Below, piece after piece: positions 1 to 56,885 of a stretch of 56,885 bases of DNA. The translations under genes were made by a program, and so were the position numbers. Within the stretch, counting starts at the first letter, position 1. Every line of letters begins with the position of its first letter. Location: the IMG/VR virus record IMGVR_UViG_3300030109_001059, positions 1 through 56,885 of that record; one strand, written 5' to 3'. The stretch comes from a virus (taxonomy: Duplodnaviria; Caudoviricetes). Below the pieces are notes generated by a model that was not told where the DNA came from, searched no databases, and saw only the letters and a list, made by a program, of their open reading frames with translations.

Positions 1-372
1 AACGCTGCTCAGAAATTTATTTTGCAGTACGATCATTTTCGGCGGTGGTCTGCGTTGCGTGGTGTAGAGCTTATACCTCATTACACGCATTCTCGTAATA
101 AAGGTGATCCTAAGTATGGTGTGCAGATGTTGGCTCCGTTGTATCGTTTAGGTCGTATTCGGCTTGCAGGAAAACAAGGGACTAATGCTAGACCTAATTC
201 GTTAAGTTTAGTTAATGAAGTAACAAAATGGAATCCAGAAGGCACAGGGTCTAGAACTGATGACTGTGTAATGGCACAATGGTTTGTAGAACATAATCTG
301 GAGAAACTATACGTACCTGCAATTAAGCCGTTAAAACAATGGCGACCTACGTGGGTAACAGCAGAAAGCTAA
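1..372 (+). CDS. terL: Terminase large subunit, C-terminal nuclease end (5'-truncated; module A)
   Basis: Frame open from base 1; TDDCVMAQWF resembles the RNase H-like DDxxxA motif; directly upstream of the portal. Confidence 0.75.
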   Translation, partial: NAAQKFILQYDHFRRWSALRGVELIPHYTHSRNKGDPKYGVQMLAPLYRLGRIRLAGKQGTNARPNSLSLVNEVTKWNPEGTGSRTDDCVMAQWFVEHNLEKLYVPAIKPLKQWRPTWVTAES

Positions 373-376
373 AAAA

Positions 377-2146
377 TTGAAAACAGCAGAAGAAATTGTA
401 GACCTGTACTACACCCGTTCATCTAATAATGCTGGTGTAAAAGAAAAAATGCGGCATATACGTGACCATTACAATGGCGATGTTATTGTTCCGCTTCCTG
501 AAATAGATACGACAGAATCTTCTGCTGTAGCTAATTTGTTGGCGCAGGGTTTAGATCAAACTGCTATGCGTATAGCGTCAGTTACTCCTGATATTATTTG
601 CCCTCCTGAAGATGAAACATCTAAACAAGCTCAGAAATATTCTGCGATTCGTCGTAAAGCGTTGTTTGGTTGGTGGCAGAACTCAAGAATTGACATGCAA
701 CTGGCTAAAAGAGCACGTCATTTAATTGGGTATTCTAACACTATTGTTCAGATACGTTTTAATCAAGAAAAAGGATGTCCGACGTGGCATGTTCGTGACC
801 CGTTGACAGCGTATCCGTCTAATTTACGTGGCGCTGATAATATGACTCCTTCTGATTGCGTGTTTGGGTATGAACGTTCGTATGGTTGGGTTAGAAAATC
901 TTATCCTGAAGCTGCTTTGCGGTTTGCTGGCGTTTCTAACGCTCCGTTAGATAATGATAAACCGATTGAACTTATTGAGTATGTGGACCATGAAGAGTAT
1001 GTGCTTGTAGCGGTCCGGCATCCAGCTAATAGCGTTGGCATGTATTCACGTAATAATGATACTGGACCTGTTGTTGCTGAGTTAGAACGAACACCTAACC
1101 CTACAGGCGTATGCCCTGTCATTATGGCAGAACGTATTTCTTTAGATCAACCTAACGGCCAGTTTGATGGCATTCTTGGAATGTATCAACAGCAAGCAAA
1201 ACTTATGGCGTTGGAAGTGATAGCTGTCCAGAAAGGTATTTTTCCTGATACGTGGCTTGTTGGCCGTGCTGGTGAACAACCAAATATTGTTAACCCTGCT
1301 AATGGTTTAACTGGAGAAGTTGGTGTTATTCGTGGCGGTGATTTAAGAGATATGCAATTAAATGTAGGGTTTATGACGAACCCTGCGATTGATCGTTTAG
1401 AAAGGGCGCAACGTTTAACTGCTGGTGTCCCTGCCGAATTTGGTGGAGAATCTACTAGCAATATTCGTACTGGTCGTCGTGGCGACGCTGTGCTTTCTGC
1501 GGTTGTTGATTTTGCTGTGCAAGAATCTCAAAAAATACTTGCTCGTTCTTTAGAAGCAGAAAATAAAATAGCTATTGCTATGGCTAAATCGTATGCTGGC
1601 AATAAATCTAAATCGTTTTATGTTTCTATGAATAAAGTGAAAGGCAAAGTAGATTATGTCCCCAACAAACATTTTACAACCGACGACAACGTTGTTTCGT
1701 ACAGTCAAGCTGGCGCTGATATTAACAACCTTGTTATCGCTGGTGGTCAACGTTTGGCTATGGGTACAATGTCGAAAGAATCGTTTATGAAAATAGATCC
1801 TCTTGTTGAGGATGTTGAAGCTGAACTTGATTCTGTTACTGCGGAACAATTAGAAGGAAGTTTGCTTGCTAGTTTGCAGCAACAAGCAGCAGGAGGGGCA
1901 ATACCGCCTTCTGATCTTGCTCGAATTATTGATCTTGTTAAATCAGATAAAGCTGAACTTGCTGAAGCTGTTGAAAAAGTACAGCGTGAAGCGCAAGAAA
2001 GGCAAGCCACAATGGTTTCGCCTACATCCCCTGAAGCACAAGCTGGTATAGCCCAAGCCGGAGCAGGAGCAGAGGCAATGGCTAGTCCACCTCCTCCTGC
2101 TCAAGGTGGGGCTGGCGGTTTGCGTGAGTTGTTAGGAGCGTTGTAA
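377..2146 (+). CDS. Portal (head-to-tail connector) protein, module A
   Basis: 589 aa, follows TerL; HIRDHYNGD N-terminal motif, Q/A/P-rich C-terminal tail typical of podovirus portals. Confidence 0.75.
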   Translation: MKTAEEIVDLYYTRSSNNAGVKEKMRHIRDHYNGDVIVPLPEIDTTESSAVANLLAQGLDQTAMRIASVTPDIICPPEDETSKQAQKYSAIRRKALFGWWQNSRIDMQLAKRARHLIGYSNTIVQIRFNQEKGCPTWHVRDPLTAYPSNLRGADNMTPSDCVFGYERSYGWVRKSYPEAALRFAGVSNAPLDNDKPIELIEYVDHEEYVLVAVRHPANSVGMYSRNNDTGPVVAELERTPNPTGVCPVIMAERISLDQPNGQFDGILGMYQQQAKLMALEVIAVQKGIFPDTWLVGRAGEQPNIVNPANGLTGEVGVIRGGDLRDMQLNVGFMTNPAIDRLERAQRLTAGVPAEFGGESTSNIRTGRRGDAVLSAVVDFAVQESQKILARSLEAENKIAIAMAKSYAGNKSKSFYVSMNKVKGKVDYVPNKHFTTDDNVVSYSQAGADINNLVIAGGQRLAMGTMSKESFMKIDPLVEDVEAELDSVTAEQLEGSLLASLQQQAAGGAIPPSDLARIIDLVKSDKAELAEAVEKVQREAQERQATMVSPTSPEAQAGIAQAGAGAEAMASPPPPAQGGAGGLRELLGAL

Positions 2147-2514
2147 TGCCTAGAAAAGGTAAAGGACAAAAAATACAAACTGTTGCTGACCAACAGTATG
2201 GTAAAGTTAAAGAGCAACGTGAAGCGCAAGCTGTTGTTCCTTTGCCACGGATGGAAGAACCTCCTAGAGTTGCTATGAAAGCTGGTGAAGTTCCTTTTAA
2301 TAGGCCGACAGAACGACGCAATGAATCTGTGTTAACTCCTCAATCGACAAGACCTGCGAGTAGACCAATATCGACAACACGTAAATTTCAAATGTTGACT
2401 TCATTGCCTGTTTTAGAAAAAATGGCTTCTCAACGAGATGCTTCACCAGAGTTGAGGCAAATAGTTCGTGAGATGCGTGTAGCGATTGGACCTATAGAAG
2501 AACTAGGTTCGTAA
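2146..2514 (+). CDS. Hypothetical basic protein
   Basis: 122 aa, TAATG overlap with portal stop. Confidence 0.6.
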   Translation: MPRKGKGQKIQTVADQQYGKVKEQREAQAVVPLPRMEEPPRVAMKAGEVPFNRPTERRNESVLTPQSTRPASRPISTTRKFQMLTSLPVLEKMASQRDASPELRQIVREMRVAIGPIEELGS

Positions 2515-2515
2515 C

Positions 2516-5500
2516 GTGGGCTTGTACGATTATCTTAAAGACAAAGCAGGCGACGCACAAAATCTTGTTGACAAGATTATTCCTGATCCGATACAAGAAG
2601 CAGCAAAAAGTGTTCCTATTTATGGGGAATTGTTTCAACCTCAACGTGCTGTTACTGAAACGCTTAGACCTTTTGTAGCTACTACTAATCTTTTTCGTGG
2701 CGCTGGAGGCACAGTTGTTGTAATAGGTAAAAACCTTTTATTTGATAGTGGAAGACAAATTTTTGGTAATGGCGACAGGGTAGCTCTTTGGGAAGATCCG
2801 TTAGCTGCAATAATTCAATACGGTAGAGAAGACATAGCACGTGATATTTTAGGTTTACCTCTTGACCCTGAAAATGAAGGCATGGGATCTGGCTATGGAT
2901 TGTTTGCCTCTAAAGGTTTAGGTGGCGGTACTTTTGGTTTAGTTCCAGAAGAAATACGTGATGTTACAAGACCTGCTGTTCAAGAAGGCGTAGAAGGTTT
3001 GCATTGGGCTTTTAATAATTTAGTAGATAATCCATTGTCAATGACATTTACGATGATAGCTAGAGTGCAGGACGCAGCAGGAAATAACCCTTTAAATTTG
3101 CTTGATTACAATACGTACAGTGTTTTATTTGACGCTAACGAATGGAAACAAGCATACGATGTTGCATGGGTTCAAGAACGTTCAGCAGGTCAAGCGTTAG
3201 CTACTGGTGTATATGCAATAGATCCATTTGATGAAGAAGCTTATAACGCTATTAAAACAAACGATTTATTTACTGTTATTTCAGGTACAGCAGATTTAAT
3301 TAAAGAATGGAAAGATCCTTTAGGAAGAATTGTTAGAGGAATTAAGCTCATATCACGTGGTGAAACGGCAATAGTTAAGTTAAACGACGCTGGAGATCTT
3401 GTAAGAATATATGATTATGGTGTTCCGTTTATGCCAGTTCGTCAAGCTATGCCTAATAAAATATGGGTTGTTGAAGGAACTGGCAATGTTCGTAAAATTG
3501 TTTACGATAAAGATATAACAACGTCAGCGATTCAAAAACCAGATAGTTTAACGCCTCCTCAAGGGATGGTTTCTAAAGTTAAAGATCGGTTTAATAAGCC
3601 TAATAATTTAACTGAACAAGATTTAGCGTTGCGTAAAACTGTTACAACTGAACAAGCTAAAGGTATGGCTGAAAGCAAATGGTTTAATGACACGTGGAAT
3701 ACGGTTATGGACGCTGTTCCTGATAATAAATTTTCTGCACAGTATAAGTCTAGTAAAATTGTTTCTACTGACGCTGACCAAACATTAATTAATGAACGTG
3801 GTGTTCGTTGGAGACAAGCTGCTGGTAGGAAAAATAATACTAAATTACCTGAGCGTGTGCAGACAGCGTTAGCTACTGCTCCTAGTAAACTTGCTGCTCA
3901 AAGAATTTTGCGTGAGTATTTAGGCGATACAACTGTTAAGGGTGAAATAGCAGAAGTTATTAGGCAAGCTGGCGCTGTTTTAATAGATAGTGATTATGGT
4001 AAGAGAATTAAATTATTAGATGACGTTGATCGTGCTATAACTAGGGCAAGAAAACGTATTGACGGTACTAACGGTAAAATATCTACGTTAAGAAATAGAA
4101 TTGAAAAGTTACAAGAAAAACGTGAATTAATTTCTACAGAAGTTCAGCCTATTGAAATACAACAAGCACGTAGAATTTCTGATTCGTTTGAAGGTGGTAT
4201 TGAATCTGTAGATGATACTCGTCGGCGTATTCTTAAAACTAGGCGTGCTGCTAATACCAGAGAAATAAATGCTCTTAAACAAGAAATAGAAGATTTAAAA
4301 GTTCAACGAGTTAAAGATGAAAATTTTGTTCGGGAAGAATCTGTTAGAAACGATGCGTTAGAAGCGGAATTAAAAATTGAAGGTCAAGTTTTTAATGATG
4401 TTCATTGGGAATACCATTTTGATTTTTATAATCAGATTAAAGTATCGCAACAAAAGAAAGTTACTTTAGATGCTAACGGCGATGTGTCGCTTCCTAAATC
4501 GCAAGTTGATGAATGGGATGATTTAGATAGAATTACTGCTCAAATTGTTGTAGATAAAATTGTTGAAGATGCTTTGTTGGCTGACAATATTGTTAAATCT
4601 GTTGGCAATAGAAAAATTTATCAACCGATTGGTGTAGTTCATAGGAATCATTTAAATAAAGTAAAAGAAACTACTGGCAATAAATTTACGTCTAATCATG
4701 ACACTGTTGTTACTACTTTTGATAAGGCGTATTCAAATCCGTCTGTGTTTTTGCCTTTGGGAATAAAGGCTTTAAAAATATTTACTAGCCGTGTGCCTCA
4801 AGGCTTAATCCATTTTACTGATTTAGGTGGGCAATCTACGATTATGTTTGAGCGTGCTATTGAAGACGCTTCAGAATTTGTTATTGGTGGGAAAAGATTG
4901 CTTTCTGAAAAAGAAGCTGTAGAAATTTTAGGCAAATGGAATGAATATGTTTTTAAAGGTGAAGATTACTCAACGTTTGTTGAATATTACACAGCAACAA
5001 TGAACAAATTGATTTACAGGGCTGAAGGCATGATGCGTAAACAAGATATTAAAGTTTATGACGATACAGGCGCATTAGTTGATATACCTAAAGACTATCT
5101 TGTTAAGCAATTAAATGGCGCTCAAAAAGATTTTCTTAATAGGTTAGATAATAAAGAATTTAAACCTATTGATATGAGTGAAACTAAGTACACTGTTGAT
5201 GAAACTGGGATGCGTGGCAAACGTATATACGATAAAGATGGTCAACTTGTAACAGAACGTAAAGCGTATACTGAGGAGCATACGTATACTAACGTTCCTG
5301 TTAATGAAGGCATACATACGTATACGTATAATTTAAGTTTAGCTCAGTTAGCTGAATGTTCTATTATTCCTAGATTTGATTTGTTGCAACGTGAAATTAA
5401 TAGATCAATGAATAGAACTGATTATTTTGGTAGCGGTAAACGTGGAACGCAAAAAGAAGGAAAGTTAGTAGATCTTAAACGAAGCAAATACGCTAAGGCA

Positions 5501-8500
5501 GTTCCTGTGGCTGCTAAAGGTTTACAGGAAGTTTGGACTGCTGGTAAATTGTTAACGCCTCGTTGGACTGTGCGTGTGTTAACTGATGAAAAGTTGCGTG
5601 CTGCTGCTGTCATGGGAGTACTACCTATGTTAGGTACGCTTAACAAAGGGTTTAATCGTTGGGTTCAAAATATGCAAGCACGTGGTTTGAATTTGACTGA
5701 TGAAGGTTTTTCTGTTGCGTTGCGAAATGAATTAAATAAAGATTTTGCAAAAAGTAAAGACGTGCCAAAAGTTTCTAATGATGCGACGTTAATAGATATA
5801 GTTAAATTTGTTGAAGAACGAGGTTTAAATTTAGAAGCTGTTATGGATAGTGCTTCTGCTCGTTATATAGAAGACGCTTTAAGAGCTAAAGAAGAAGCTA
5901 CTAAAATAAGCCCTTCACGTAGAAAAGGTCTTGGCATAACTGCACGTGCGCTTGTAGGGGGTATGGTTAATCCTTTGCTTGGTGCTGGTTGGGGTTTTAG
6001 ATATTGGAAAAACCGTACTAAGAATTTACAAAAGTATGCTGTTAAAAGTTCAGCAGCGCAATTAGCGAATGCGTTTCAAATTGACGCTGCACGTATAATA
6101 GGAGAAGCAGCAGATGATATAACTGTTATAGAACTTGCTGAACGTTTAAGTTCTAGTGGCGATCAGTTGTTAAAAGATTTAGCGTGGCTTGAAGATGAAT
6201 ATAATTTTGGTTTGTCTTGGGCTGATAAAGATAAGGTTGTTAGTTTATTTGACCAAGCTGATATGTGGTGGGAAAAAGCTGGTTACCCTAGACAAACTAT
6301 TGGTAACGCAACTTTTGGTAATGCGTGGGGTTCTGATTTAAGGTTCCAACGCATGTCTCAAAGGCAGTTATCTAGCGCTAATAGTCTTGACACATCTATG
6401 CGTGGACCTGTTGCTGCTGCTAAACGCCAAATAAATGAAAACATAGGTGAAGGATGGGAAATTGTTGATGTTCTTAAAGAAGGTGTTACTGCTTCTCAGA
6501 TGAGAACAGCGTGGACACGTACTTATATGCAGATGTCACGTACAGGTACTAACGAAATATCATTTTACAACATTATGTATAATGACAGTTTGTCTCACGT
6601 GCAAAAAGTTGAAGCTATCGCTGCTTTAATTGAAAACACGCCTCGTTTGCAACGTAAGTATCAAATAAAAGGTTATGAAGGAAAAGGCGCTGATAGAAAA
6701 ATATTTAAAGAAATAGCTGAAGACGCTATTGATGAAGTTAATGATTTTCTTCCTCCTGAATATTTCCCTGATTTGCGTGCCAAGGTGCGTGCAGGTGAGG
6801 AAATTAGTTGGGATGATGTTAAATCGACATTAACTGATCCAGAGTTTATAGCTAGACATGGATTTGATGGTAGTAAAGCTAACGAAATTATTGCTCAAAT
6901 TCGTATAAAAGATAACTCTTCACGTGGAGGGTTTGGTAAAGCTAGAGATTCTATTAGTCAACCATCAGCAAAACAAGAAGGTTTTATAAAATGGACACGT
7001 GATTTGATTGATAAAACATTTCAAAATCTTGGCACAGGCGCAGCAGATGATATTTCAAGAGGACCATTTTTTGAATCTAGGTATAGGACGCATTTAATAG
7101 ATAGCGCAGCGCCTTACGCTAAAGCTGACGGCACGTATGATTTAACGCCTGCTGATATTATTCGTATGGAAGACGAAGCACGTAAAGCAGCTTTTAAAGA
7201 TACTAGAGAAGTTATGTATGAGCTAGCTGAACACAGCGAATTTGCTGAAATGGTTGGTTTTATGTCGCCGTTCTTTAATGCGTGGCAAGAAGTTATTGGC
7301 AGGTGGGCTGGGCTAGCTATAGAAAACCCTGCGTTTGCTTACAAAGGTGTCCGGTTGTTTACTAAAGATGATGTTGAACTGCCGATCCTAGGGTTGACAC
7401 AAGAAGAAGATCAATACGGAAATTTAAATGTTGTGTTTAGACCTAAAGATAGCGCTCTTGCATCGTTGTTAGTTAATCCTAAATTTACTAATAGTATTAG
7501 TGACGCTGCTAATCAGGTGTTGCCTAGTTCTCCTATTGGTAGTGTCGGTGAGCTTGTTGACGAGGTTGGAATTAAGTTAGATAAAGATGGGTTGTTTACG
7601 ATGTTGACTAAAACAACTCCTAGTGCTGGCCCGTTTATTACGTTGCCTTTACGAACGTTTATGTTTGATTTTAAAAAACCTGAAATAGAAAAAGTTGCTG
7701 GATGGATGTTCCCATTTGGCCACCCAGATGGAAACTTTGTTGAACGTTTTGTTCAAGAATTTACTCCGTCATGGGCCGATCATTTATACTACACAGCGTT
7801 AGATCCAGATAATCCTTTCCGTTTTGGCAATAAACAAAACTACGGATTGACCATGATTGATATGGTGACTTACCTTGACGTTAAAGCTAGAGAAGCAGGA
7901 ACTCCTTACGACTACACTGACCCTGAAGTACAAAGTAGTGTTATAGCTAAAGCTGAAGAAATGACACAAAGTGTCGGGTTTTTAAAGTTTCTTGCAACTA
8001 CTGTAATACCTGTAGCTTCTGCTGAAGGTTCTCCGTATGAACCGTATATTATAAAATTAAATCAATTAGAAGAACATGGTAGAGTCATAGGAAAAGAACC
8101 TGAATGGGCTGTTAACCAATTCCTCAGTATTTACGGTGAAGAGTTTTTCTTTCTAAGCGGTAACGCAACTAGAAACGCTAAAGGTGTTGCTCCGACAATA
8201 GAGTCGTTTAAATTATCTCAAGAACATAAAGATTTTATAGAAAAATATCCTGTAATGACTTCTGTTGTAACTAATTCTTTGCGTGTTAGCGCTATTGAAG
8301 ATGGAGCGTTTTCACCGGCTGTTCAACAAATTTTTATGAATGAAGGATGGCGTGAAATTTATACGCCTGAAGAATTTATTAAACAGACAGAAGTGTCACG
8401 TGGGTATACTGAATTAAACGCTTGGAAAGATAGTCCGATAGATGGTGTAGAAGGAAGCCCGTCTTATAATCAATTGTTGTATGCTAATGATGGGTTAAGT

Positions 8501-8905
8501 AATTCGCCTTCTGCTGCTGTTCATTCTGGTTTGAAGCTATATTATGATCTTAAAAAAGCAGAACTTAGTGAAAAATATCCGTTGTTTGGTGAAGCGATTG
8601 AAGAATTTAGTTCTTCTAATTATATTGCTGAGGTGATGGAAGGCGCTAGGGCTTTGGTTGAAGAACCGTCGTTAGCGTATAAGCCTTGGATTGGTAGCCT
8701 TGTAGAGTATTTAGATATTCGGAACGATTTTGAAAATGATTTGAGAAGGTTGCCTAGTAGTTCTTTGGAAGCTGATAACAATAGGTTATTAATGTATGAG
8801 TGGGATCAAGTTAGATCTGAATTTGCTACTAGGCCAGATTTTGCTTTGTTTTATTCAAGGTTTTTAGAGAATGATCTTATTCCCAAGAACAGTTGGGCAG
8901 ACTAG
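2516..8905 (+). CDS. Very large putative internal virion/DNA-ejection protein (2129 aa)
   Basis: Size, coiled-coil stretch, SPFFNAWQEVIGRW segment resembling those of large ejection proteins; structural operon context. Confidence 0.55.
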   Translation: MGLYDYLKDKAGDAQNLVDKIIPDPIQEAAKSVPIYGELFQPQRAVTETLRPFVATTNLFRGAGGTVVVIGKNLLFDSGRQIFGNGDRVALWEDPLAAIIQYGREDIARDILGLPLDPENEGMGSGYGLFASKGLGGGTFGLVPEEIRDVTRPAVQEGVEGLHWAFNNLVDNPLSMTFTMIARVQDAAGNNPLNLLDYNTYSVLFDANEWKQAYDVAWVQERSAGQALATGVYAIDPFDEEAYNAIKTNDLFTVISGTADLIKEWKDPLGRIVRGIKLISRGETAIVKLNDAGDLVRIYDYGVPFMPVRQAMPNKIWVVEGTGNVRKIVYDKDITTSAIQKPDSLTPPQGMVSKVKDRFNKPNNLTEQDLALRKTVTTEQAKGMAESKWFNDTWNTVMDAVPDNKFSAQYKSSKIVSTDADQTLINERGVRWRQAAGRKNNTKLPERVQTALATAPSKLAAQRILREYLGDTTVKGEIAEVIRQAGAVLIDSDYGKRIKLLDDVDRAITRARKRIDGTNGKISTLRNRIEKLQEKRELISTEVQPIEIQQARRISDSFEGGIESVDDTRRRILKTRRAANTREINALKQEIEDLKVQRVKDENFVREESVRNDALEAELKIEGQVFNDVHWEYHFDFYNQIKVSQQKKVTLDANGDVSLPKSQVDEWDDLDRITAQIVVDKIVEDALLADNIVKSVGNRKIYQPIGVVHRNHLNKVKETTGNKFTSNHDTVVTTFDKAYSNPSVFLPLGIKALKIFTSRVPQGLIHFTDLGGQSTIMFERAIEDASEFVIGGKRLLSEKEAVEILGKWNEYVFKGEDYSTFVEYYTATMNKLIYRAEGMMRKQDIKVYDDTGALVDIPKDYLVKQLNGAQKDFLNRLDNKEFKPIDMSETKYTVDETGMRGKRIYDKDGQLVTERKAYTEEHTYTNVPVNEGIHTYTYNLSLAQLAECSIIPRFDLLQREINRSMNRTDYFGSGKRGTQKEGKLVDLKRSKYAKAVPVAAKGLQEVWTAGKLLTPRWTVRVLTDEKLRAAAVMGVLPMLGTLNKGFNRWVQNMQARGLNLTDEGFSVALRNELNKDFAKSKDVPKVSNDATLIDIVKFVEERGLNLEAVMDSASARYIEDALRAKEEATKISPSRRKGLGITARALVGGMVNPLLGAGWGFRYWKNRTKNLQKYAVKSSAAQLANAFQIDAARIIGEAADDITVIELAERLSSSGDQLLKDLAWLEDEYNFGLSWADKDKVVSLFDQADMWWEKAGYPRQTIGNATFGNAWGSDLRFQRMSQRQLSSANSLDTSMRGPVAAAKRQINENIGEGWEIVDVLKEGVTASQMRTAWTRTYMQMSRTGTNEISFYNIMYNDSLSHVQKVEAIAALIENTPRLQRKYQIKGYEGKGADRKIFKEIAEDAIDEVNDFLPPEYFPDLRAKVRAGEEISWDDVKSTLTDPEFIARHGFDGSKANEIIAQIRIKDNSSRGGFGKARDSISQPSAKQEGFIKWTRDLIDKTFQNLGTGAADDISRGPFFESRYRTHLIDSAAPYAKADGTYDLTPADIIRMEDEARKAAFKDTREVMYELAEHSEFAEMVGFMSPFFNAWQEVIGRWAGLAIENPAFAYKGVRLFTKDDVELPILGLTQEEDQYGNLNVVFRPKDSALASLLVNPKFTNSISDAANQVLPSSPIGSVGELVDEVGIKLDKDGLFTMLTKTTPSAGPFITLPLRTFMFDFKKPEIEKVAGWMFPFGHPDGNFVERFVQEFTPSWADHLYYTALDPDNPFRFGNKQNYGLTMIDMVTYLDVKAREAGTPYDYTDPEVQSSVIAKAEEMTQSVGFLKFLATTVIPVASAEGSPYEPYIIKLNQLEEHGRVIGKEPEWAVNQFLSIYGEEFFFLSGNATRNAKGVAPTIESFKLSQEHKDFIEKYPVMTSVVTNSLRVSAIEDGAFSPAVQQIFMNEGWREIYTPEEFIKQTEVSRGYTELNAWKDSPIDGVEGSPSYNQLLYANDGLSNSPSAAVHSGLKLYYDLKKAELSEKYPLFGEAIEEFSSSNYIAEVMEGARALVEEPSLAYKPWIGSLVEYLDIRNDFENDLRRLPSSSLEADNNRLLMYEWDQVRSEFATRPDFALFYSRFLENDLIPKNSWAD

Positions 8906-8914
8906 GATAGTGTT

Positions 8915-10057: not shown

Positions 10058-10072
10058 TGATAGATTTGGGTT

Positions 10073-12187: not shown

Positions 12188-12189
12188 AT

Positions 12190-13155: not shown

Positions 13156-13159
13156 GTTG

Positions 13160-47768: not shown

Positions 47769-47780
47769 GTTGTTTATAGA
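47756..47780 (+). promoter_or_regulatory. Putative late promoter TGGGACA-N12-TATAGA (copy 4)
   Basis: Exact spacing; separate from the downstream RBS. Confidence 0.65.
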
Positions 47781-47806
47781 GCATATGTATACATGGAAGG
47801 TGCTTA

Positions 47807-48091
47807 ATGGCAAGTAAATTTGTATCTCACACGAGTGCATCACAAACAGTTGACGGGAAATCAGGGAAAAACAACAAAATGGAACGTGGTTCCAGTGTTG
47901 TTGCAAACCCTATTTGGGAACCACATGGTCCTCAAAGCCCTAAACAACGTTTTGATGGCGGAAAAATCAGTAACCAATCGACTGATAAGGGTCACACCTC
48001 AGTTCGTGAAACGCCGAAAAACCAGCATGGTATTTCTGGCAAGGTAGAACCCGCACACAAACAACCACATTACAAAGGACATAACGCTTAA
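47807..48091 (+). CDS. Basic hypothetical protein
   Basis: GGAAGG RBS. Confidence 0.55.
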   Translation: MASKFVSHTSASQTVDGKSGKNNKMERGSSVVANPIWEPHGPQSPKQRFDGGKISNQSTDKGHTSVRETPKNQHGISGKVEPAHKQPHYKGHNA

Positions 48092-48093
48092 AT

Positions 48094-48351
48094 ATGGCGA
48101 TCTTGCCCAGAGGGGCAAGCTACGAAGAATTTGTAGAATACGTTACTAATTTGCGTGGCGAAGTCCCTGAAGAAGAACTGAAGGAACTGTACGAACGCCG
48201 TTTAAAGCTTCATGGTATTACTTTTGATACGAAGCGTGGTTGGAGAGCAGTTGCTCTTGCTCCTGACGAGCAAGACTTAACTAATCGAGAACGTGAACAG
48301 AAGATAGTTTCTGAAGCTAAAGCTCAGGGCAGAAACATAGCAAGGGTTTAA
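48094..48351 (+). CDS. Hypothetical protein
   Basis: 85 aa, immediately before the portal. Confidence 0.55.
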   Translation: MAILPRGASYEEFVEYVTNLRGEVPEEELKELYERRLKLHGITFDTKRGWRAVALAPDEQDLTNREREQKIVSEAKAQGRNIARV

Positions 48352-48352
48352 T

Positions 48353-50254
48353 ATGGCTAAAAAAACTCGCCAAGAACTTCTTGACGATGCTCAAGAAAGA
48401 GTTCGTAAATGTAAACAATGGCGTGAATCAGAAAGCCTTGACCACACTTGGCGTAGACTCAATGACCTGTATCGCGGGAAACATTTCCCTGCTAGTAGTG
48501 TAAATAAACAAGATTTAATCTCTGTAAATTTAGCTTTTTCAACAGTTAACGTAATAGCGCCTTCCGTAGCTGTTAACTACCCTAAGATCGTTGTACAAGC
48601 TAACAAACCAGAAGATAGAGATAGAGCTGTTTTTGTAGAAGCTGTTATTAACCACTTGTGGAAACACCATGATTTCCGAACCCCATTTAGAAGAGCTGTT
48701 AAAGATTTTCTTATCTTTGGTCATGGTTGGGTAAAGGTTGGTTGGAAGTTCGTTGAGCAAGAACAAACAGTTACTGATAATGAAAGAGACGGCATTATCC
48801 AGCAAGCTTTAGATGAAGTGAAAATGTTTGCTCAGGACAACCCTGAAGAAGCACTTCAACTACCTACAGATGCAGAAATTGTCGCTAATGTGCCTGAAAC
48901 TATCATGCGAGTTGTTGAAGATCAGCCTTTCGTTGAACGGGTAAGCCCATTTGATGTATACGTTGACCCTGAAGCTACTTGTTTGGAAGATGCTAAGTGG
49001 ATTGCCCAGCGAGTAATACGTCCTCTTGCTATGGCAAAAGAGGATAAACGCTACAAGCCAGCAGCTCGGAAAAGATTGAATCTTTCTAACGTAGAATCTG
49101 AACTTCGTTATACGGCTGCGGAAGACGATAAGCGCCAATATGTAGATGAACGTGTTGTTATTTGGGAATACTACGATGTTGCAGCTAACACTCTTTCTGT
49201 ATATGCAGAAGATGGGGATGAATTTCTTATAGACCCCATACAAATGCCTTACGCATACGGTCAACCGTTTGTCATGATACGAAATTATGATGTTCCTGAC
49301 CAATTCTACCCAATGGGAGATCTAGAAGCGTTAGAGCCTCTACAGCTAGAACTTGATAAAACTCGTAGCCAACTAATGAACGACAGAAAAAGGTATGCTC
49401 GTAAATACTTATACCACGAAAGATCGTTTGGTCCTGAAGGTCGTGAAGCTCTTGAATCTGAAGATGATGGCCGTTTAGTCCCTGTTGTGGACGAAAATAA
49501 ACCTTTGTCAGAGGTCGTTATGCCTATGCCTCAGGTCCCTGTATCCCCTGAAATATATAATTATTCTCAAATTATTGAAAATGACATTAATACTGTTTCA
49601 GGTATTTCAGAATATGCACGAGGTGCTATGCCTGAAGTGCGCCGTACAGCTACTGAAGCTTCTATTGTTGCTGACGCTCAAAATGCACGCTCAGCAGACA
49701 AATTGGCAATAGTTGAAATTTCTACTTCTTTAGTAGCTAGACGAGTTGTCCAGCTTATGCAGCAATTTATGACTGGTGAGCAGATGGCTCGTGTGGCTAT
49801 GAAAGGTGGCGATTCTGTATTTGTGCCGTACACCCGTGAGGAAATTGTGGGCGAGTACGATTACAGCGTTCAAGCTGGTTCTACACAACCGATGAATGAA
49901 ACTATAAGAAAGCAGCAAGCTATTTCCTTGATGAACGCTGTTGCTCCTTTGGTTGGAACAGTAATAGACCCTGCTGCTTTAGCAATGCACGTTTTGGAGT
50001 TTGGATTTGGGATACAAGATCCTGATAAATTCTTAATGCAACAACCTCCTCCTCAAATGATGGGCGAAGAAGAAGCACCACCCGAAGAGGGTGGTGTTCC
50101 CCCTGAAATGATGGGTTCTGGGCCACCAATTCCTGCTGAGATGATGGGTGGGGTTCCTCCTAGTCCTGAATTATTTGCCCCTACGGGCGGTATTCCTCCT
50201 GAAATACTGGCTCAACTACAAAATCAGATGGGACTACAGCTTCCATCCTTGTAG
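48353..50254 (+). CDS. Portal protein, module B
   Basis: 633 aa; GHGWVKVGW, VERVSPFDVYVDPEA, RRTATEA; M/P/Q-rich tail. Confidence 0.85.
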   Translation: MAKKTRQELLDDAQERVRKCKQWRESESLDHTWRRLNDLYRGKHFPASSVNKQDLISVNLAFSTVNVIAPSVAVNYPKIVVQANKPEDRDRAVFVEAVINHLWKHHDFRTPFRRAVKDFLIFGHGWVKVGWKFVEQEQTVTDNERDGIIQQALDEVKMFAQDNPEEALQLPTDAEIVANVPETIMRVVEDQPFVERVSPFDVYVDPEATCLEDAKWIAQRVIRPLAMAKEDKRYKPAARKRLNLSNVESELRYTAAEDDKRQYVDERVVIWEYYDVAANTLSVYAEDGDEFLIDPIQMPYAYGQPFVMIRNYDVPDQFYPMGDLEALEPLQLELDKTRSQLMNDRKRYARKYLYHERSFGPEGREALESEDDGRLVPVVDENKPLSEVVMPMPQVPVSPEIYNYSQIIENDINTVSGISEYARGAMPEVRRTATEASIVADAQNARSADKLAIVEISTSLVARRVVQLMQQFMTGEQMARVAMKGGDSVFVPYTREEIVGEYDYSVQAGSTQPMNETIRKQQAISLMNAVAPLVGTVIDPAALAMHVLEFGFGIQDPDKFLMQQPPPQMMGEEEAPPEEGGVPPEMMGSGPPIPAEMMGGVPPSPELFAPTGGIPPEILAQLQNQMGLQLPSL

Positions 50255-50258
50255 TTTT

Positions 50259-50283
50259 TGGGACACTGTGATTAACTTATAGG
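50259..50283 (+). promoter_or_regulatory. Putative late promoter TGGGACA-N12-TATAGG (copy 5) before scaffold/capsid
   Basis: Exact spacing; separate from the AGGAGG RBS near 50307. Confidence 0.65.
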
Positions 50284-50319
50284 AACAACTTATTCACTGA
50301 GACTCCTAGGAGGGCAATT

Positions 50320-51072
50320 GTGCCTGAAGAAACAGAAGCCATAGAACCCACTCAAGAAGTGGACAACCTTGAAACTTCAACAGAAGTACCAGAGGAACCT
50401 GCATATACTGTCAAAGTAGATGGTGAGGAAGAGCAGGTCACCCTTGAAGAACTTCAACAAGGTTACCAAAGGCAAGCGGATTATACCCGTAAAACGCAAG
50501 AGGTAGCTGCTGAACGTGAAAGACTGCAACAAGCAGAGCAGATTGTATCGGCTCTGGAAGCAGATCCTGAAGGTACGCTTCAAACTTTGATGCGTTCATT
50601 CAATGTAGATTTAACACCGCCCTCGCGAGAGGAACAGCGTGAATTGGCTGAAGAGTGGGATTCTATGGATGAAACTGAACGTAAAGTGATAATGCTTGAA
50701 CAAAGATTAGCGGACCAAGATCAGAGATTTGCCCAACAGGAACAGGTTCAAAGGGTTCAGCGAATAGAGCGTGAAGTTAATTCTTTACAAGAAAAATACG
50801 GAGAGTTCGACGGAAAAGAACTTGTCAATCATGCCATCAAGCATCGTATCCCTAATTTGGATGCAGCATATGCTCACTGGCGTTTCAACGATGTTAAATC
50901 TGTTGCGGATAAATTAACGCAAGATCAAGAAATAACATCTAAAAAACGAGACGCTTCGGTTGTTACAACTGGTGGTTCAAGTCAAGCAACTGGTGATGTT
51001 GAATCAACTCCTCAAGTTTCAAGTCTTAGAGACGCTTTCGCTTTAGCCAAAAAACAATTAAGCAACAATTAA
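50320..51072 (+). CDS. Capsid scaffolding protein, module B
   Basis: YTVKVDGEEEQVTLEEL..GYQRQADYTRKTQE scaffold motif, coiled coil. Confidence 0.8.
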   Translation: MPEETEAIEPTQEVDNLETSTEVPEEPAYTVKVDGEEEQVTLEELQQGYQRQADYTRKTQEVAAERERLQQAEQIVSALEADPEGTLQTLMRSFNVDLTPPSREEQRELAEEWDSMDETERKVIMLEQRLADQDQRFAQQEQVQRVQRIEREVNSLQEKYGEFDGKELVNHAIKHRIPNLDAAYAHWRFNDVKSVADKLTQDQEITSKKRDASVVTTGGSSQATGDVESTPQVSSLRDAFALAKKQLSNN

Positions 51073-51091
51073 CCTCTAAGGAGATAAGAAT

Positions 51092-52054
51092 ATGGCTGGT
51101 AACAGCAATTTTGATGAGATTCTTACCACCACCTTAAATAACTATGTTCCTAAATTGGTTGACAACATTTTCACAGCTAGGCCTCTGTTCTATGCTTTGA
51201 CAAATGGTCAAACAATTCGGCGCATCAACGGTGGTGCTAAGATAGTTGTTCCTGTAATTTATGGAACGAACTCAACCGCTTCTTCTTACAGTGGGACAGA
51301 TTCAATTTCTACGACTGCTCAGACAGGCATTTCAGCCGCTGAGTACAACTGGAAACAGTATGCTGCCACTGTAACCATCAACGGCTTGGAAGAAGCCAAA
51401 AACAATGGTGAGGCACAAATCATTGACCTTCTCGAAGGCAAGATTTTCCAAACCCAAGAAACAATTATTGAAAACATGAACGCAATGTTCTATGCAGACG
51501 GAAATGGCAACAGCCAAAAAGACTGGATGGGCATTGGCGGTATTGTTGGAACAGGCAACGATGGCGGTGGCGCAGCAGCCATTGGTAACATCGATGCTTC
51601 TGGTTCTAACAACACATGGTGGAGATCATCAGTTACTAACGTAGGTGGTGCTCTAACCGTGGCTGGCATGGCAACCATGTACAACAATGTTTCTGTAGGT
51701 AACGATCAGCCAACGATCATCATTACTGACCAAGACGAATACGAAAAGTATGAGTCTCTTCTCACTGACCAAATTCGGTACACAGATACCGATATGGCCG
51801 ACAGTGGGTTTCAGAACCTTCTATTCAAGGGTGCGCCTGTAACGTTTGATGCTGATTCAAACCTTGACGGCAAAATGTACTTCTTGAACACGAAGTATCT
51901 ACAACTCGTTGCACATAGCGATGTTTGGTTTAAGCCAACACCGTTTGTACGACCAACCAACCAAGACGCTGTGTTCTCACAGATTCTTTGTTACGGTGAG
52001 CTAACCACAAGCAACAGAGCGCGCCAAGGTGTGCTTGTTGGTCTAACCGACTAA
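51092..52054 (+). CDS. Major capsid protein, module B
   Basis: 320 aa after the scaffold; LVDNIF, AEYNWKQY, GFQNLLFKG, MYFLNT, CYGELTTSNRARQG; AAGGAG RBS. Confidence 0.85.
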   Translation: MAGNSNFDEILTTTLNNYVPKLVDNIFTARPLFYALTNGQTIRRINGGAKIVVPVIYGTNSTASSYSGTDSISTTAQTGISAAEYNWKQYAATVTINGLEEAKNNGEAQIIDLLEGKIFQTQETIIENMNAMFYADGNGNSQKDWMGIGGIVGTGNDGGGAAAIGNIDASGSNNTWWRSSVTNVGGALTVAGMATMYNNVSVGNDQPTIIITDQDEYEKYESLLTDQIRYTDTDMADSGFQNLLFKGAPVTFDADSNLDGKMYFLNTKYLQLVAHSDVWFKPTPFVRPTNQDAVFSQILCYGELTTSNRARQGVLVGLTD

Positions 52055-52061
52055 GTTGCTG

Positions 52062-52313
52062 ATGGGTAGAGAATACGCTTACGCATACAAATCAAACGCA
52101 AAACCTTATGGGCAGCCTAAGGATAACTTTCACGAAAGTACTCCTCGGCCTGAAAGCGTAGGTTTGAAAAGAAATGTTCGTCGAGTTATGGACACTAGCG
52201 TAGCCGTTGCATCCCCTGAAGTTAGCAAATGCAGTGCGCTAACCCGAAGTGGGGAACCCTGTAAAGGGCGACCTGCTTCGGGTAGCGATCTGTGTAACTT
52301 CCACAGGAAGTAA
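52062..52313 (+). CDS. Small protein with C-terminal CCCH zinc finger
   Basis: CSALTRSGEPCKG...CNFH. Confidence 0.55.
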   Translation: MGREYAYAYKSNAKPYGQPKDNFHESTPRPESVGLKRNVRRVMDTSVAVASPEVSKCSALTRSGEPCKGRPASGSDLCNFHRK

Positions 52314-52315
52314 CT

Positions 52316-53020
52316 ATGCAAATATCCGAAATGCGAACGTACATTAGAGGAATACTGGATATAGATTCCACGGATATTTCAGACGATATTCTTAATCGTT
52401 TTATAGGTGAAGGCTACGATCAAGTTGTTTATTCTGAGAAACGTTGGCCTTTTTACGAAGTCGAAAAAACTTTCAGCACTGTAGCTGCCACTAAGGACTA
52501 TGACCTTAAAACAGATGGGGCTGTTTTTACTTCAGGTTTGCGTGATGTTGCTGCCTTAAGAACAGATGACCATGTGCTTTCATACATAGGTCGCGACGAT
52601 GGCGACGTGGTGTATCCCCTAGATAGTAATTCAACTGGGGATGTATGGTATTTCTCATACTGGGCTGAAAAAGTGCGTTTATACCCAACGCCGTCTTCTG
52701 TTCAAACCATTTATGTTAGGGGATACGGTAAGCCAAGTGCTTTTGGCGCTGGGAGTGTTGATACTGCGACCCCTTCAGATTTTGATGAACCTTTTCATAT
52801 CCTATTCGCTACTTACGCAATAGCTCGTGCTTATGAACAGCAAGAAGACCCTGAAATGGCCCAACAGTACTATACAATCTTTGCTAGAGAGCTAGATAAT
52901 CTTAGAGCTAGATTTTTAGATGTTCCCGCGCCTCAACCGCTTGTCTTAAATTCTAGAAGCGCTTCTCGTTGGCGTTCACAAAGTATTTTACCTGACAGAC
53001 TACGTTATAGCTGGGAGTAG
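52316..53020 (+). CDS. Head-tail adaptor / tail tubular protein A-like
   Basis: Position after the capsid; WPF, RLYPTP and FHILF motifs. Confidence 0.65.
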   Translation: MQISEMRTYIRGILDIDSTDISDDILNRFIGEGYDQVVYSEKRWPFYEVEKTFSTVAATKDYDLKTDGAVFTSGLRDVAALRTDDHVLSYIGRDDGDVVYPLDSNSTGDVWYFSYWAEKVRLYPTPSSVQTIYVRGYGKPSAFGAGSVDTATPSDFDEPFHILFATYAIARAYEQQEDPEMAQQYYTIFARELDNLRARFLDVPAPQPLVLNSRSASRWRSQSILPDRLRYSWE

Positions 53021-53023
53021 CCG

Positions 53024-54616
53024 ATGGCTAAAGAAGGCTATAAAACGCAAGTCTTAGAAAGTTTCTCAGGTGGGTTGAATTACAGAACCGATCAATTCAA
53101 TCTTGCCCCTAACGAATCACCTGATATGTTAAACGTTGACATTGACCCTCGTGGAGGTGTCAAGTTACGCAAAGGGGTTGCAGCAGTAAATTCAACGCAG
53201 GTTAGTTCTTCTAAGGAAATTATTGGGTTGGGTTCTTTTTTTACTGATTCTGGGACTTCTCATATTGTTGGCAATTACGGTACTGCGGTTGCGTACAGTA
53301 CAGGTGGAAATTTTACAACAATTTCTAGTGGGATTACGGCAAGGACTGATGGTTCTCGCATGTATGGCATGACGATGAACAACGTGTTTTATGGCGTGTC
53401 TGGAGATGTTGTTTCTTTTAAATGGGATGGTTCTAGCGGGGCTGATCTTGGAGTTAATTTAAATGGTTCTGCTGGGAATTATCCTATCGCCCAGTACACG
53501 GCGTTCTGGAATAACTTTGCATGGGCTGCTAAAACTCGTGAAGATGGAACTTACGAAAATTCTAGGGTTCGTTGGTCTAACGCTAACTTCCCTGAAAAAT
53601 GGACAGCAAATGACTATGTAGACATAGACGTTGGAGAACGTGGTGACTATATCACTGGGCTTCTTCCGCTTTCTGATCGTTTACTTGTTTTTAAGAACAA
53701 CAGTATTCATGCTATTTATGGTTTTGATTCTGATACTTTTCAAGTAGTTGCTTTGTCTCGTGACGTTGGTTCTGTTGCGTTGTCTTCTCCTGTATCCACA
53801 CCGTATGGGGTGTTTTTCTGGTATGGGCGTGAAGGAATAATGTTGTATGACGGTCAGCAATTTACTAATGTGTTTGAAAAACTGAAGCCTGCTATAGACA
53901 ATGGAAGAATTAGTTTTACGACAGCTCCTCAGTTGGCTTGGTTTGAAAATCGTTTATATGTTTCTGTAGACATGCTGAAATACTATGAAACAGGTACGAC
54001 TCGTTCGCGTCATGTGTTTGTATATGATCCTTCGATACGTTCGTGGGCAGCAACAGATATTAACGCTGCGACGTTACATGTTCATAGCGCTCCTACTGCG
54101 CTTCCTTTGCTTTTAGGAGCTTCCCAATTCTCTGGTTCTGGAGATAAGGGTCGTGTCGTTAAGTTGGAACAATCTAGAACTACGGACAGTTACAACGGTA
54201 GCGCTTCTACACGCATTAACTCATTTTTTACTACTCCTTGGATTTCTGGGAAAAATCCTGTTGTGAAAAAACGGTGGGGTAAACCTCAGGTAGTTATGGA
54301 TGCTGCTGCTACCCAAACTATGGAAATTGATGTGTATTCTGATTTTGATAAAGCTTCTACTAGCAAAACTGTGTATTTAAATGTTTCTGGTAGGGATTCT
54401 ACTTACACTTGGGAAACTGATGATACTGGCACAGGTAGTCTTTGGGGAACAGCTACTTGGTCTTCTGAAGCTGCTTCTAGCATTACTGATGTTGTTCGTT
54501 TACAAAGCTTAGGTTTATCTAAATCTGTAGCTTTAAAAATTAAGGGTCCTTCTCAATCTGTTGATTGGGAAATTAATGGAATTATGTTTACTTACAAACC
54601 AAGGAGATTACGCTAA
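53024..54616 (+). CDS. Tail nozzle / tubular protein B-like (beta-propeller)
   Basis: FSGGLN...ESPDMLNVD, RVRWS...PEKW, LLVFK; 530 aa. Confidence 0.7.
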   Translation: MAKEGYKTQVLESFSGGLNYRTDQFNLAPNESPDMLNVDIDPRGGVKLRKGVAAVNSTQVSSSKEIIGLGSFFTDSGTSHIVGNYGTAVAYSTGGNFTTISSGITARTDGSRMYGMTMNNVFYGVSGDVVSFKWDGSSGADLGVNLNGSAGNYPIAQYTAFWNNFAWAAKTREDGTYENSRVRWSNANFPEKWTANDYVDIDVGERGDYITGLLPLSDRLLVFKNNSIHAIYGFDSDTFQVVALSRDVGSVALSSPVSTPYGVFFWYGREGIMLYDGQQFTNVFEKLKPAIDNGRISFTTAPQLAWFENRLYVSVDMLKYYETGTTRSRHVFVYDPSIRSWAATDINAATLHVHSAPTALPLLLGASQFSGSGDKGRVVKLEQSRTTDSYNGSASTRINSFFTTPWISGKNPVVKKRWGKPQVVMDAAATQTMEIDVYSDFDKASTSKTVYLNVSGRDSTYTWETDDTGTGSLWGTATWSSEAASSITDVVRLQSLGLSKSVALKIKGPSQSVDWEINGIMFTYKPRRLR

Positions 54617-55410
54617 TGGCTGGAACATTATCTATTACAAATGACAATTTTCAGGCTGGCACTGCAATAGTTGCTTCTGAAATGAATACTAACTTTACTG
54701 AGGTTGAGAACTATATCAATAATAGTATGCCTTCTTTGGGGACAGCATCTGTGTTTACTGCTGCTGTTACTTGCAATGCTGGTTTTACTTCTACAACGGT
54801 AACAACTTCAGGCGAGTTAAAAGTACAAGACCAAGCATGCATAAGAGACGACGCAACCCCTGCAACGATAACTGATAGGTTACTTACGCTTCGGACACAA
54901 ACTTCAGGTATGGTTCCGTTGTTAGCGTTGGCAGAAACTGCTGTTTCTGGCACTACGCCAGTAGCTGGAATCTTTATGATAGGCACTGACGGTGATGGCA
55001 CTAATCCTGATACTAACGATTATTGGCTTTTGTTTCGGAAGGGAAATGGCGACACTATTGGTTCTGTCCGAGGGACTGGATCTAACACTGTTAATTTTGA
55101 AACATCTTCAGATCAAACGTTAAAAAATGATCTTGGGGTTGTTACCGAAGCTTCTTCTGTCATTGATGCTTTACAAGTTCATAAATTTACTTGGAAAGAC
55201 GCTGACAGCAAAGTTGGTGAACACATAGGTTTATTCGCTCAAGAAGCTATTGAAGTTCTACCTTATGGAATAGTTTCTCCAGCAAGCACACGAACAGAAG
55301 ATGGCAAAGAAATGTATATTCCTGCTGGTATTGACTATTCCAAGATCGTTCCTTTTTTAATTGCTGAGATTCAAAGCTTGCGGGCTAGGGTCGCTGCTGT
55401 GGAGGGCTAG
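54616..55410 (+). CDS. Tail fibre with S74-like intramolecular chaperone
   Basis: ASEMNTNF N-terminus; SDQTLKND...GLFAQE...[17 protein letters not shown]. Confidence 0.75.
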
Positions 55411-56885
55411 TGCCTAGAGATATACAATACACCAAGCTATTAGATCCTATTGTTCAGATAGCTATAGCTGACGGCCTTGATTACGAGGGGACGTATTCAG
55501 CGTCTACAACGTATGCTGCTGGCGATGTTGTAACACATCCTGCGGGTTCAGGCGCTTCGTCCTATGTTGCTAGGCAAGCTACTACTGGCAATGCTCCAAG
55601 TGATTCTGCGTATTGGCAGACGTTAGCTTCTTCTGTTACTGGCCCAACTGGTTCAACTGGTCCAACGGGGCCAACAGGTCCCGCTGGACCCACAGGCCCA
55701 AATGGTCCTACAGGGCCAAATGGCCCCACAGGACCTACAGGCCCAACAGGAGGAACAGGACCTACTGGACCTACAGGCCCTACAGGGCCAAGTGGTGCTG
55801 ATGGTAACACCATATTAAATGGTAGCGGAGATCCTAGTGGACCTACTGGTTCTAATGGCGATTTCTATATTGATACAAACGACAATGAAATTTTTGGACC
55901 TAAAAGTGGAAGTGGTTGGGGTTCAGCCACGTCACTTGTAGGCCCAACTGGTCCAACTGGACCTACAGGTCCAACTGGGGGAACTGGCCCTACAGGTCCA
56001 ACTGGTCCCGCTGGCCCTACAGGTCCTGCGGGACCCACAGGTCCTGACGGTCCTAACGGACCTACTGGCCCGACTGGACCCGCTGGCCCCACTGGGCCTG
56101 CTGGTCCGACTGGTTCTACTGGCCCGACTGGGCCTACAGGCGCACAAATTCTTAATGGCAGTGGTGACCCTTCTGGCCCCACAGGTTCTAACGGTGACTT
56201 TTATATAGATACTGGGGATAACGAAATCTTTGGCCCTAAGTCAGGTTCTGGCTGGGGTTCTGGTACTTCGTTGGTGGGACCTACTGGGCCTAGTGGCCCT
56301 ACTGGTCCCGCTGGGCCGACTGGACCTGCGGGTGGGACTGGTCCTACTGGGCCGACAGGCCCAACTGGACCTGCTGGACCTGATGGTCCTGATGGCCCTA
56401 CAGGTCCTAGTGGTGGTACTGGTCCTACAGGCCCGACTGGTCCTGCTGGTCCTGCTGGACCAACTGGACCTACAGGACCTACTGGTCCTTCTGGTACTCC
56501 TGCTGGTTCAGATCATCAAGTTCAATGGAACGACGGTGGTAGCTTTGGGGCTGACGCTAATCTTACTTATGATGGTTCAACGTTAACTGCTAAGGCAGCG
56601 TTAACTGTCGGCGTTAACGACTCAGGCCATGACGTTATTTTCTACGGGGCGACTGCCGACACTAGTTACTTTTGGTGGGACGAAAGCGACGACAGAATGG
56701 TGGTCAGTGGAAAGGTAGAATTTGTTGGCGACGGCGCTTGGAAAACATGGACTCCAACATGGGGCAACGTAACAATTGGAAATGCGACAGTAGTTGCACA
56801 ATACGTTCAGCTCGACGAATGGGTATTCGTAAAAATGAGAGCTGTAGCAGGTAGTGGGACTGGTTATTCGTCAGGGTCTATGTCC
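55410..56885 (+). CDS. Collagen-like tail fibre (3'-truncated), missing from ORF track
   Basis: GTG at 55410, frame open to the window end; CBM5/12-like [13 protein letters not shown]...YW, three Gly-Pro-Thr collagen blocks, two ILNGSGDP...GPK..GWG domains, then the tip shared with 17460-18233. Confidence 0.85.
56637..56885 (+). repeat. 249-bp direct repeat, copy 2 (window end)
   Basis: Matches 17739-17987 with 5 mismatches; offset 38,898 bp. Confidence 0.95.

Follow-up and report, generated by a model that had tools for sequence, protein, structure and literature searches.

The window analyzed here is the whole 56,885-bp IMG/VR entry IMGVR_UViG_3300030109_001059, a virus record classed as linear and given a CheckV completeness of 100. 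Scanning its open reading frames (ORFs) with PHROGs and Pfam profiles, we confirmed that it holds two unrelated, non-overlapping virion gene sets, one in 1-17.7 kb and one in ~18-56.9 kb, referred to below as phage A and phage B, which meet at a tail-fibre tip that is present in two near-identical copies. Related IMG/VR records and loci are called A-type or B-type after the capsid that they carry; those cited most often are records G001 and G002 and locus L087 (A-type) and record G006 (B-type). The phage A part contains the following features, all on the plus strand.

1..17710: phage A fragment, with virion and lysis genes only, beginning within the large terminase gene
1..372: C-terminal 123 residues of the phage A large terminase, 5'-open, recognized through a 622-residue ORF of relatives
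377..2146: portal (phrog_104, 6.8e-07; 100% identical in G001, 88% in G002)
2516..8905: giant protein of 2129 residues (phrog_10618, 1.3e-19, function unknown)
10073-12187: lysozyme-domain protein (profile scan)
13284-13763: putative scaffold, by position only (phrog_7813, unknown function)
13795..14733: major capsid protein (phrog_1357 major head protein, 2.8e-66)
15343..16368: fibre 1, with its own tip and an intramolecular chaperone domain (tail fibre PHROGs; Peptidase_S74, 7.7e-11)
16483-17208: endolysin (phrog_2649, 9.9e-25; PG_binding_1)
17184-17450: r1t-holin-like ORF (Phage_r1t_holin, 30.2 bits against a cut-off of 26.9)
17460..18233: fibre 2, composed of an A-type N-terminus, a linker and the shared tip (identity to L087 until ~17710)

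The product of 1-372 is 100% identical to the end of the 622-residue ORF in G001 and L171, and that ORF matches phrog_38 (2e-44). Judging from its size and position, the 2129-residue protein would have a virion or ejection-type role. Fibre 1 and fibre 2 have their N-terminal part and linker in common. The segment in which A passes into B and the second copy of the tip are laid out as follows.

17711..17756, plus strand: putative recombination joint in the conserved linker (protein LTVGVNxxGHDVxFYGA)
17757..17987, plus strand: shared tip, copy 1 (A allele), with 3 mismatches in 231 nt against 56655-56885
17988..56885, no strand assigned: complete phage B genome of 38,898 bp, circularly closed by the repeat arithmetic and the synteny of relatives
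18182..18520, plus strand: tail-fibre assembly chaperone (Phage_tail_APC PF16778, 6.9e-18; phrog_4912, 1.4e-15)
55410-56885, plus strand: phage B collagen-like fibre, whose shaft-to-linker part ends at 56654, followed by the shared tip
56655..56885, plus strand: shared tip, copy 2 (B allele), running to the record end with 108 exact bases

The virion, lysis and replication genes of phage B that have to be set beside those of phage A are listed next.

20614-26139, plus strand: giant protein of 1841 residues (G006 homologue, 38%)
26139-26912, plus strand: endolysin (Amidase_2 and PG_binding_1; phrog_1493, 1.7e-51; G006 homologue, 66%)
28334-28558: holin-like ORF (23.9 bits, under the cut-off)
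28899..42246, minus strand: early and replication arm (sigma-like protein, RusA, primase, DnaB-like helicase, exonuclease), colinear with G006
46210-47100 and 47097-47768, plus strand: large terminase, in two ORFs (profile scan)
48353-50254, plus strand: portal (phrog_1216, 3.5e-23)
50320-51072, plus strand: scaffold (phrog_3927, 1.7e-14)
51092-52054, plus strand: major capsid protein (phrog_9953, 1.5e-68)
54616-55410, plus strand: fibre (Peptidase_S74)

Further tail proteins of phage B were recovered by the same profiles. An earlier note on this DNA had listed a doubled set of virion genes, and its two portals, two dissimilar major capsids, two giant proteins and two different endolysins were all borne out by PHROGs and Pfam. 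Other pairs held for one phage better than for the other: the large terminase (TerL) is represented in B by both ORFs but in A only by the C-terminal 123-residue fragment; the scaffold has a PHROG match in B, whereas that of A is placed by position; and the holin call exceeds its cut-off in A but falls below it in B. The single replication arm described for the window was also found, on the minus strand at 28.9-42.2 kb in B, and it is single because A is truncated; A-type genomes have replication genes of their own.

Direct repeats lie at 17693-17987 and 56591-56885 with a spacing of 38,898 and an identity of 94%. Their 17 mismatches are distributed as 14 in 17693-17756 and 3 (17813, 17874 and 17879) in 17757-17987, and the record terminates inside the repeat after 108 nt of exact match. 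The interval that had been marked as the repeat in the earlier note, 17739-17987, corresponds to the near-identical core, with 5 mismatches in 249 nt. Its statement that the window ends inside this repeat, so that 17988-56885 forms a circle of 38,898 bp when closed through it, agrees with both the spacing and the exact match of the final 108 nt. The join between A and B therefore sits in a repeat whose two copies are nearly the same, and re-entry into that repeat is where the contig stops, as in a chimera.

Both gene sets are found in separately existing genomes. Searching IMG/VR for relatives of the two capsids gave 162 A-type and 529 B-type relatives, in contigs of up to 40,660 bp and up to 40,929 bp, respectively, and the longest contigs of both types are 35-41 kb. 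A-type records with direct terminal repeats measure 38,429 bp (G002) and 36,604 bp, and others of 40,660 bp and 38,045 bp are rated 100% complete; B-type records with direct terminal repeats measure 38,001 bp (G006) and 40,413 bp. The terminal repeats measured among those genomes were 123 nt and 99 nt. We partitioned 51 ORFs of the window by tblastn against G001, G002 and G006. Of the 12 ORFs in 1-17208, every one matches G001, an A-type record nearly identical to the window, and 11 match G002, in comparison with two weak, short domain matches in the B-type G006. From 18702 on, 27 of 37 ORFs match G006 with their order kept, and G006 itself runs from the fibre through a homologue of 18702-19166 to the giant protein, the endolysin, the replication arm and the terminase; the matches of these B ORFs in A-type records are 3 of 37 (G001) and 4 of 37 (G002), all of them local domain matches. 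By blastn, B-unique sequence of at least 500 nt was present in 0 of 80 A-type loci and A-unique sequence of at least 500 nt in 0 of 80 B-type loci. The small cross-matches between A and B are host-interaction modules, at 44346-45071, 26182-26447 and 15614-15814 of the window.

The relatives also part from the window around the fibre tip. A-type loci of 95-99% blastn identity (L087, L088 and L084) cease to match the window at 17627-17755 and those at ~80% identity cease at 17694, and B-type loci continue from the collagen fibre into 18376-18750. Three B-type loci with the same tip (L164, L165 and L168) are colinear with the window in the order 47-54.7 kb, 17693-18701 and 25-28 kb, which supports closure of the circle independently of the window. 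Past the fibre cluster, the A-type L087, L167 and G002 carry genes for proteins of 269, 131, 309 and 641 residues, and then a 252-residue protein that is a DNA-polymerase exonuclease subunit (phrog_403, 1e-86); these five downstream proteins have no match in the window. Both sides of the join thus belong to genomes that exist apart from each other.

This bears on the idea that the window is a helper-satellite-like composite, in which one element would be non-autonomous and both capsid sets would form one system. Two virion sets beside one replication arm would suit such a system, but the replication genes missing from A are explained by truncation, and A-type genomes possess a terminase, portal, capsid and DNA-polymerase exonuclease subunit of their own. 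Moreover, in two of the four sequencing runs compared below B is the deeper of the two, and in another the A-type contigs continue into a different tip. We give this explanation next to no chance.

Twenty public runs hold part of 12740-22739, two of them most of it (0.90 and 0.86 of words), and the runs that match the window are marine or seawater metagenomes. We compared Logan contigs of four runs (X1, X2, X3 and X13) over 7740-27739 of the window, with the following results for X1 and X2.

X1, A contig: 11,089 nt, window 7740-13224, depth 18, 0 differences
X1, B contig: 24,766 nt, window 18421-27739, depth 74.9, 3 differences
X2, A pieces: depth 4.35-4.9
X2, B contig: 21,254 nt, depth 28.9
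X2, tip piece: 604 nt, window 17757-18360, depth 35.5, 3 differences

B is thus deeper than A by a ratio of ~4.2 in X1 and ~6 in X2. The X2 tip piece (35.5) exceeds the depth of B alone (28.9), and the depths summed over the tip bin come to 137.1 in X1 and 39.7 in X2. No piece bridging A-unique and B-unique sequence was seen among the 32 of 516 contig pieces that were searched. In both X1 and X2 the fibre sequence of B enters the tip at 17730, and in X1 a fibre of the type found in A-type locus L170 enters it at 17704. One contig departs from the tip at 18501 into an A-type endolysin, which is exactly the arrangement of L167, and at 17743 an A-type contig of X3, a run from another study, departs and continues for 255 letters into the tip of the L087 type. 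Cover in X3 is near nil past 17745 and that in X13 is low there, and neither was used as evidence, nor were the word shares of 0.21-0.38 in the other 16 runs. Sides of unequal depth, extra depth over the tip and links from the tip to other downstream sequence were what the earlier note had foreseen for a composite that is not real, and all three were found, the depths at contig level in X1 and X2 and the links in the exits at 18501 and 17743.

The depths have to be weighed against a real recombinant or cointegrate, in which part of A would be fused to the whole of B by homologous recombination at the tip. Such a molecule would be in keeping with the genuine junction between A and the tip that is described below, with the co-occurrence of A and B phages that probably share a host, and with depths that leave room for a hybrid at the depth of A beside free B. 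However, A starts in mid-gene, and adding the ~20 kb of A that are missing would bring the full molecule to ~77 kb; complete relatives are all 36-41 kb, and ~77 kb would probably not fit either capsid. The record as it stands is already 1.4-1.6 times the length of every complete relative with A still truncated. In addition, none of the 160 related loci combines both backbones, the end of the record falls exactly inside the repeat, and the depth is not uniform but differs 4-6 fold between the two sides. We consider a cointegrate very improbable, and the two-capsid composite is most likely not a real feature.

The switch from phage A into the tip is a different matter, as this junction is genuine: phage A has a tip copy of its own, and the erroneous join comes after that copy. 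The window follows the A-type L087 to ~17710 and the tip family of L170 and L164 from ~17726, with letters of its own in between. The switch from A to tip is spanned by a contig of run X2 (record 20), which matches 17363-17753 without a difference and has a depth of 4.91. Around the junction, exact runs between L087 and the tip alleles reach about a dozen bases at most, and none reaches 30. Three sites distinguish the two tip copies, and at two of them A agrees with a B-type relative from elsewhere. The spanning contig, the letters peculiar to the window and the allele differences together establish that phage A owns its tip copy. The misassembly of A and B proposed in the earlier note therefore stands, except that the A-to-tip junction is not part of the artefact.

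These observations also decide against a three-way artefact, in which phage A would lack this tip and the assembly would have jumped through words of the linker into a second A-type strain or into B. X1 does contain another A-type strain that bears this tip (depth 56.7, with loose ends at 17704, 17450 and 18501), and the nearest A-type relatives, L087 and the X3 contig, bear a different tip from ~17711-17743. Against it, the spanning contig of X2 has the depth of A and not that of B (28.9) and shows no differences, at 17721-17723 the window reads GGT, unlike L087, L170, L164 or the B copy, 17711-17756 shares no exact run of at least 30 bases with any of these four sequences, and the A copy departs from the B copy at 17813, 17874 and 17879. 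We judge this explanation to be highly unlikely.

The fibre tip is real biology in that it sits on at least three fibre backbones in both lineages. The linker that precedes it is common to fibre 1, fibre 2, the collagen-like fibre of B and the fibre of L087, with different tips behind it, and a strict scan with the linker motif found 24 fibres with 14 tip classes. Among the 80 A-type loci the strict motif occurred in 13, and among the 80 B-type loci in 5; many of the 160 loci may end short of the fibre genes. A further tip class behind the motif is common to the A-type loci L143 and L145 and the B-type L037, which suggests that the sharing of tips across lineages is recurrent. Tip and chaperone of the B-type L164, L165 and L168 are 88.6% identical to the window versus 65-73% in their flanks; those of the A-type L167 and L169 are 96% identical up to 18501, and the flanks of L167 90%; and A and B are 99% identical in the tip and share no other DNA. 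The module is thus far closer between genomes than its flanks are, and the breakpoint falls at the conserved joint of ~17711-17756, as for an exchanged unit. The earlier note had proposed a shared fibre tip on two fibres; the tip is confirmed, but the unit held in common probably extends through the downstream chaperone, to ~18501, and the number of backbones is higher than supposed.

The tip itself has one PHROG match, weak and of unknown function. We found no Pfam family for it in the profile scan, no sequence match in the Protein Data Bank (PDB) at E up to 1, and no match in 50,697 cultured-phage records. In a protein atlas its neighbours were viral clusters without names, at 0.89-0.90, and these offer no more than a lead. 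In the chaperone only the C-terminal domain matches known families, mostly from marine phages and at 32-69% over parts of the sequence.

The order of fibre and lysis genes differs among A-type genomes. In the window (15343-18520), L087 and G002, the order is fibre 1, endolysin, fibre 2 and chaperone, and in L170 (9574-10077) and L167 (1-1600) there is one fibre, with a start like that of fibre 1 followed by the shared tip, and then the chaperone and the endolysin. The two layouts appear to co-exist in run X1. A second module that crosses the lineages was seen in the 514-residue protein of phage B (43642-45186), which is 42% identical over 180 residues to the product of an A-type gene. The gene contains a Pro/Thr-rich repeat at 44127-44288 and has nucleotide matches of 67-79%, especially in 44346-45071, in several A-type loci; the counterparts of this module lie at 19994-20935 in L087 and 37263-37763 in G002. 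The amidase endolysin of G002 (30404-31186) is 53% identical over 265 residues to that of phage B (26139-26912), unlike the endolysin of A in the window, and so lysis genes also swap between the lineages.

Taken as a whole, these results make it very probable that the record is a chimeric "lasso" contig of two unrelated phages, formed via a near-identical fibre tip. The walk of the assembler from A into B that the earlier note had proposed is supported by the separate genomes, the 0 of 160 mixed loci, the closure of the circle, the unequal depth and the contigs around the tip. We envisage that the sample contained two unrelated marine podovirus-like phages, each with a stand-alone genome of ~36-41 kb, and that fibre 2 of phage A and the collagen-like fibre of phage B ended in a near-identical receptor-binding tip. 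A short-read assembler would have entered the tip from A, found the copies indistinguishable and exited along B; it would then have followed the circular graph of B once round and stopped on re-entry into the tip. The true continuation of phage A past the cassette would be the conserved series of A-type genes on another contig. Most likely the tip was swapped recently, together with its chaperone, when both phages infected the same host and recombined homologously at the linker, and from its position and the adjacent PF16778 chaperone it may bind a host receptor and need that chaperone.

Several points weigh against the chimeric contig or weaken the evidence for it. The depths are word depths from Logan contigs, with one figure per contig, and taken alone they would also fit a hybrid at the depth of A together with free B. 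X1 and X2 may derive from the source sample or from one near to it, in which case they are not independent, although the assembler differs. The search for a bridge spans 32 of 516 pieces, and a bridging piece among the rest is possible. An exact 36-nt word of the A allele had 0 matches in IMG/VR, from which the window's own record was perhaps excluded, and searching metagenome contigs with the tip yielded three relatives at 29-35% and no continuation of phage A. The comparison of GC and tetranucleotide profiles that the earlier note had recommended does set A apart from B, but only modestly: GC is 0.39-0.405 in A versus 0.44-0.47 in B, and tetranucleotide profiles correlate at 0.93 inside A and 0.68-0.80 inside B, against 0.50-0.80 for A with B. 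As a discriminator composition is further weakened by the GC of the A-type G001 (0.417) and G002 (0.430), which overlaps that of the B-type G006 (0.437).

There is a small chance that the A-to-B join exists in a minority of real molecules, as hybrid concatemers produced by homologous recombination at the tip-chaperone cassette during co-replication. If so, the record caught recombination between lineages in progress, and the linker would be a portable splice site through which receptor-binding tips pass from one marine fibre backbone to another, with at least three such backbones involved. As a chimeric contig, which is how we read it, the record carries a completeness rating of 100% although it consists of 17.7 kb of one phage attached to the entire genome of a second. 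Such a chimera would inflate estimates of genome size, confuse taxonomy and networks of shared genes, and give rise to a spurious "two-capsid" phage. The record is best split at the tip, with 17988-56885 retained as a complete circular genome of 38.9 kb. The occurrence of the same tip and chaperone at 96-99% identity in two unrelated lineages, and in a second arrangement within one of them, argues for a shared host and recent tip swapping.

The remaining features of phage B lie outside the fibre cassette.

28899-29312, minus strand: sigma-like protein (profile scan)
42502-42945, plus strand: small terminase (profile scan)
45597-46211, minus strand: 2OG-Fe(II) oxygenase (phrog_61, 9.2e-30)

The oxygenase gene, with a homologue of 56% identity in G006, lies on the opposite strand between the terminase genes. 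The two TerL ORFs are in different frames with an ATGA overlap and comprise a Terminase_6N ATPase part and a C-terminal part. This two-frame layout is kept in 33 of the 33 B-type loci that hold both halves, and it is therefore a trait of the lineage, through either programmed frameshifting or a gene split in two, and does not stem from an error in sequencing. Within the long fibre, directly upstream of the linker, 55620-56431 consists of ~40 overlapping copies with a 9-nt period that encode a collagen-like Gly-X-Y shaft. The motif TGGGACA, which the earlier note had located only in the circle, does have all 8 of its sites in B, though 14 of 100 shuffles reach 8 (mean 5.36) and the count is not above chance. 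The sites include 18669, 26933, 42451 (minus strand), 42467, 47756 and 50259; several are intergenic, and 42451 and 42467 form a divergent pair. Short hairpins likewise fall mostly within B (8 of 9). Those at 37187-37244, 39663-39698 and 40820-40861 have the common stem ACGCGACGGG, and those at 33580-33623 and 42392-42434 are G-rich and near-perfect. These five hairpins, located in the minus-strand arm or at the divergent junction, may be terminators or regulatory sites.

Compared with cultured phages, the phage A capsid is 38-40% identical to those of Streptomyces podophages such as Kumquat and FlowerPower, and the phage B capsid is 23-37% identical to those of phages of Myxococcus (Mx8, Mx9), Bradyrhizobium, Ruegeria and Brucella. 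With all cultured capsid matches below 41%, both backbones represent uncultured marine lineages. The best of these matches suggest different host groups for A and B and do not identify the host. The actinobacterial label that the earlier note had put on the two phages finds no support in the capsid matches or in the marine origin of the runs.

Chimeras induced by repeats are a common artefact of short-read metagenome assembly, and CheckV flags contigs that are much longer than expected. The window resembles known lasso contigs in that a near-identical segment longer than the assembly word is entered from one genome and left along the other. It resembles them also in that the circle is traversed once, the contig ends on re-entry into the repeat and the depths are unequal; nothing essential differs. 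The fibre cassette has its own precedents. Mosaicism of tail fibres with Tfa-like chaperones is classical in P2, Mu, lambda and T4-type fibres, and here too the C-terminus and a chaperone of the Phage_tail_APC type appear to form one cassette behind a lineage-specific N-terminus. Similar in kind are the distantly related marine Alteromonas phages A5 and V22, which share a fibre and chaperone through horizontal transfer and recombination (PMC10579305). In our case tip and chaperone reach 96-99% identity between backbones that have no other DNA in common. What is swapped here is the C-terminal tip alone, downstream of a linker, and the partners are uncultured podovirus-like phages; the two cases are likened in kind and not in sequence. 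The sharing of the tip-chaperone cassette between phages A and B is a new example of this known process.

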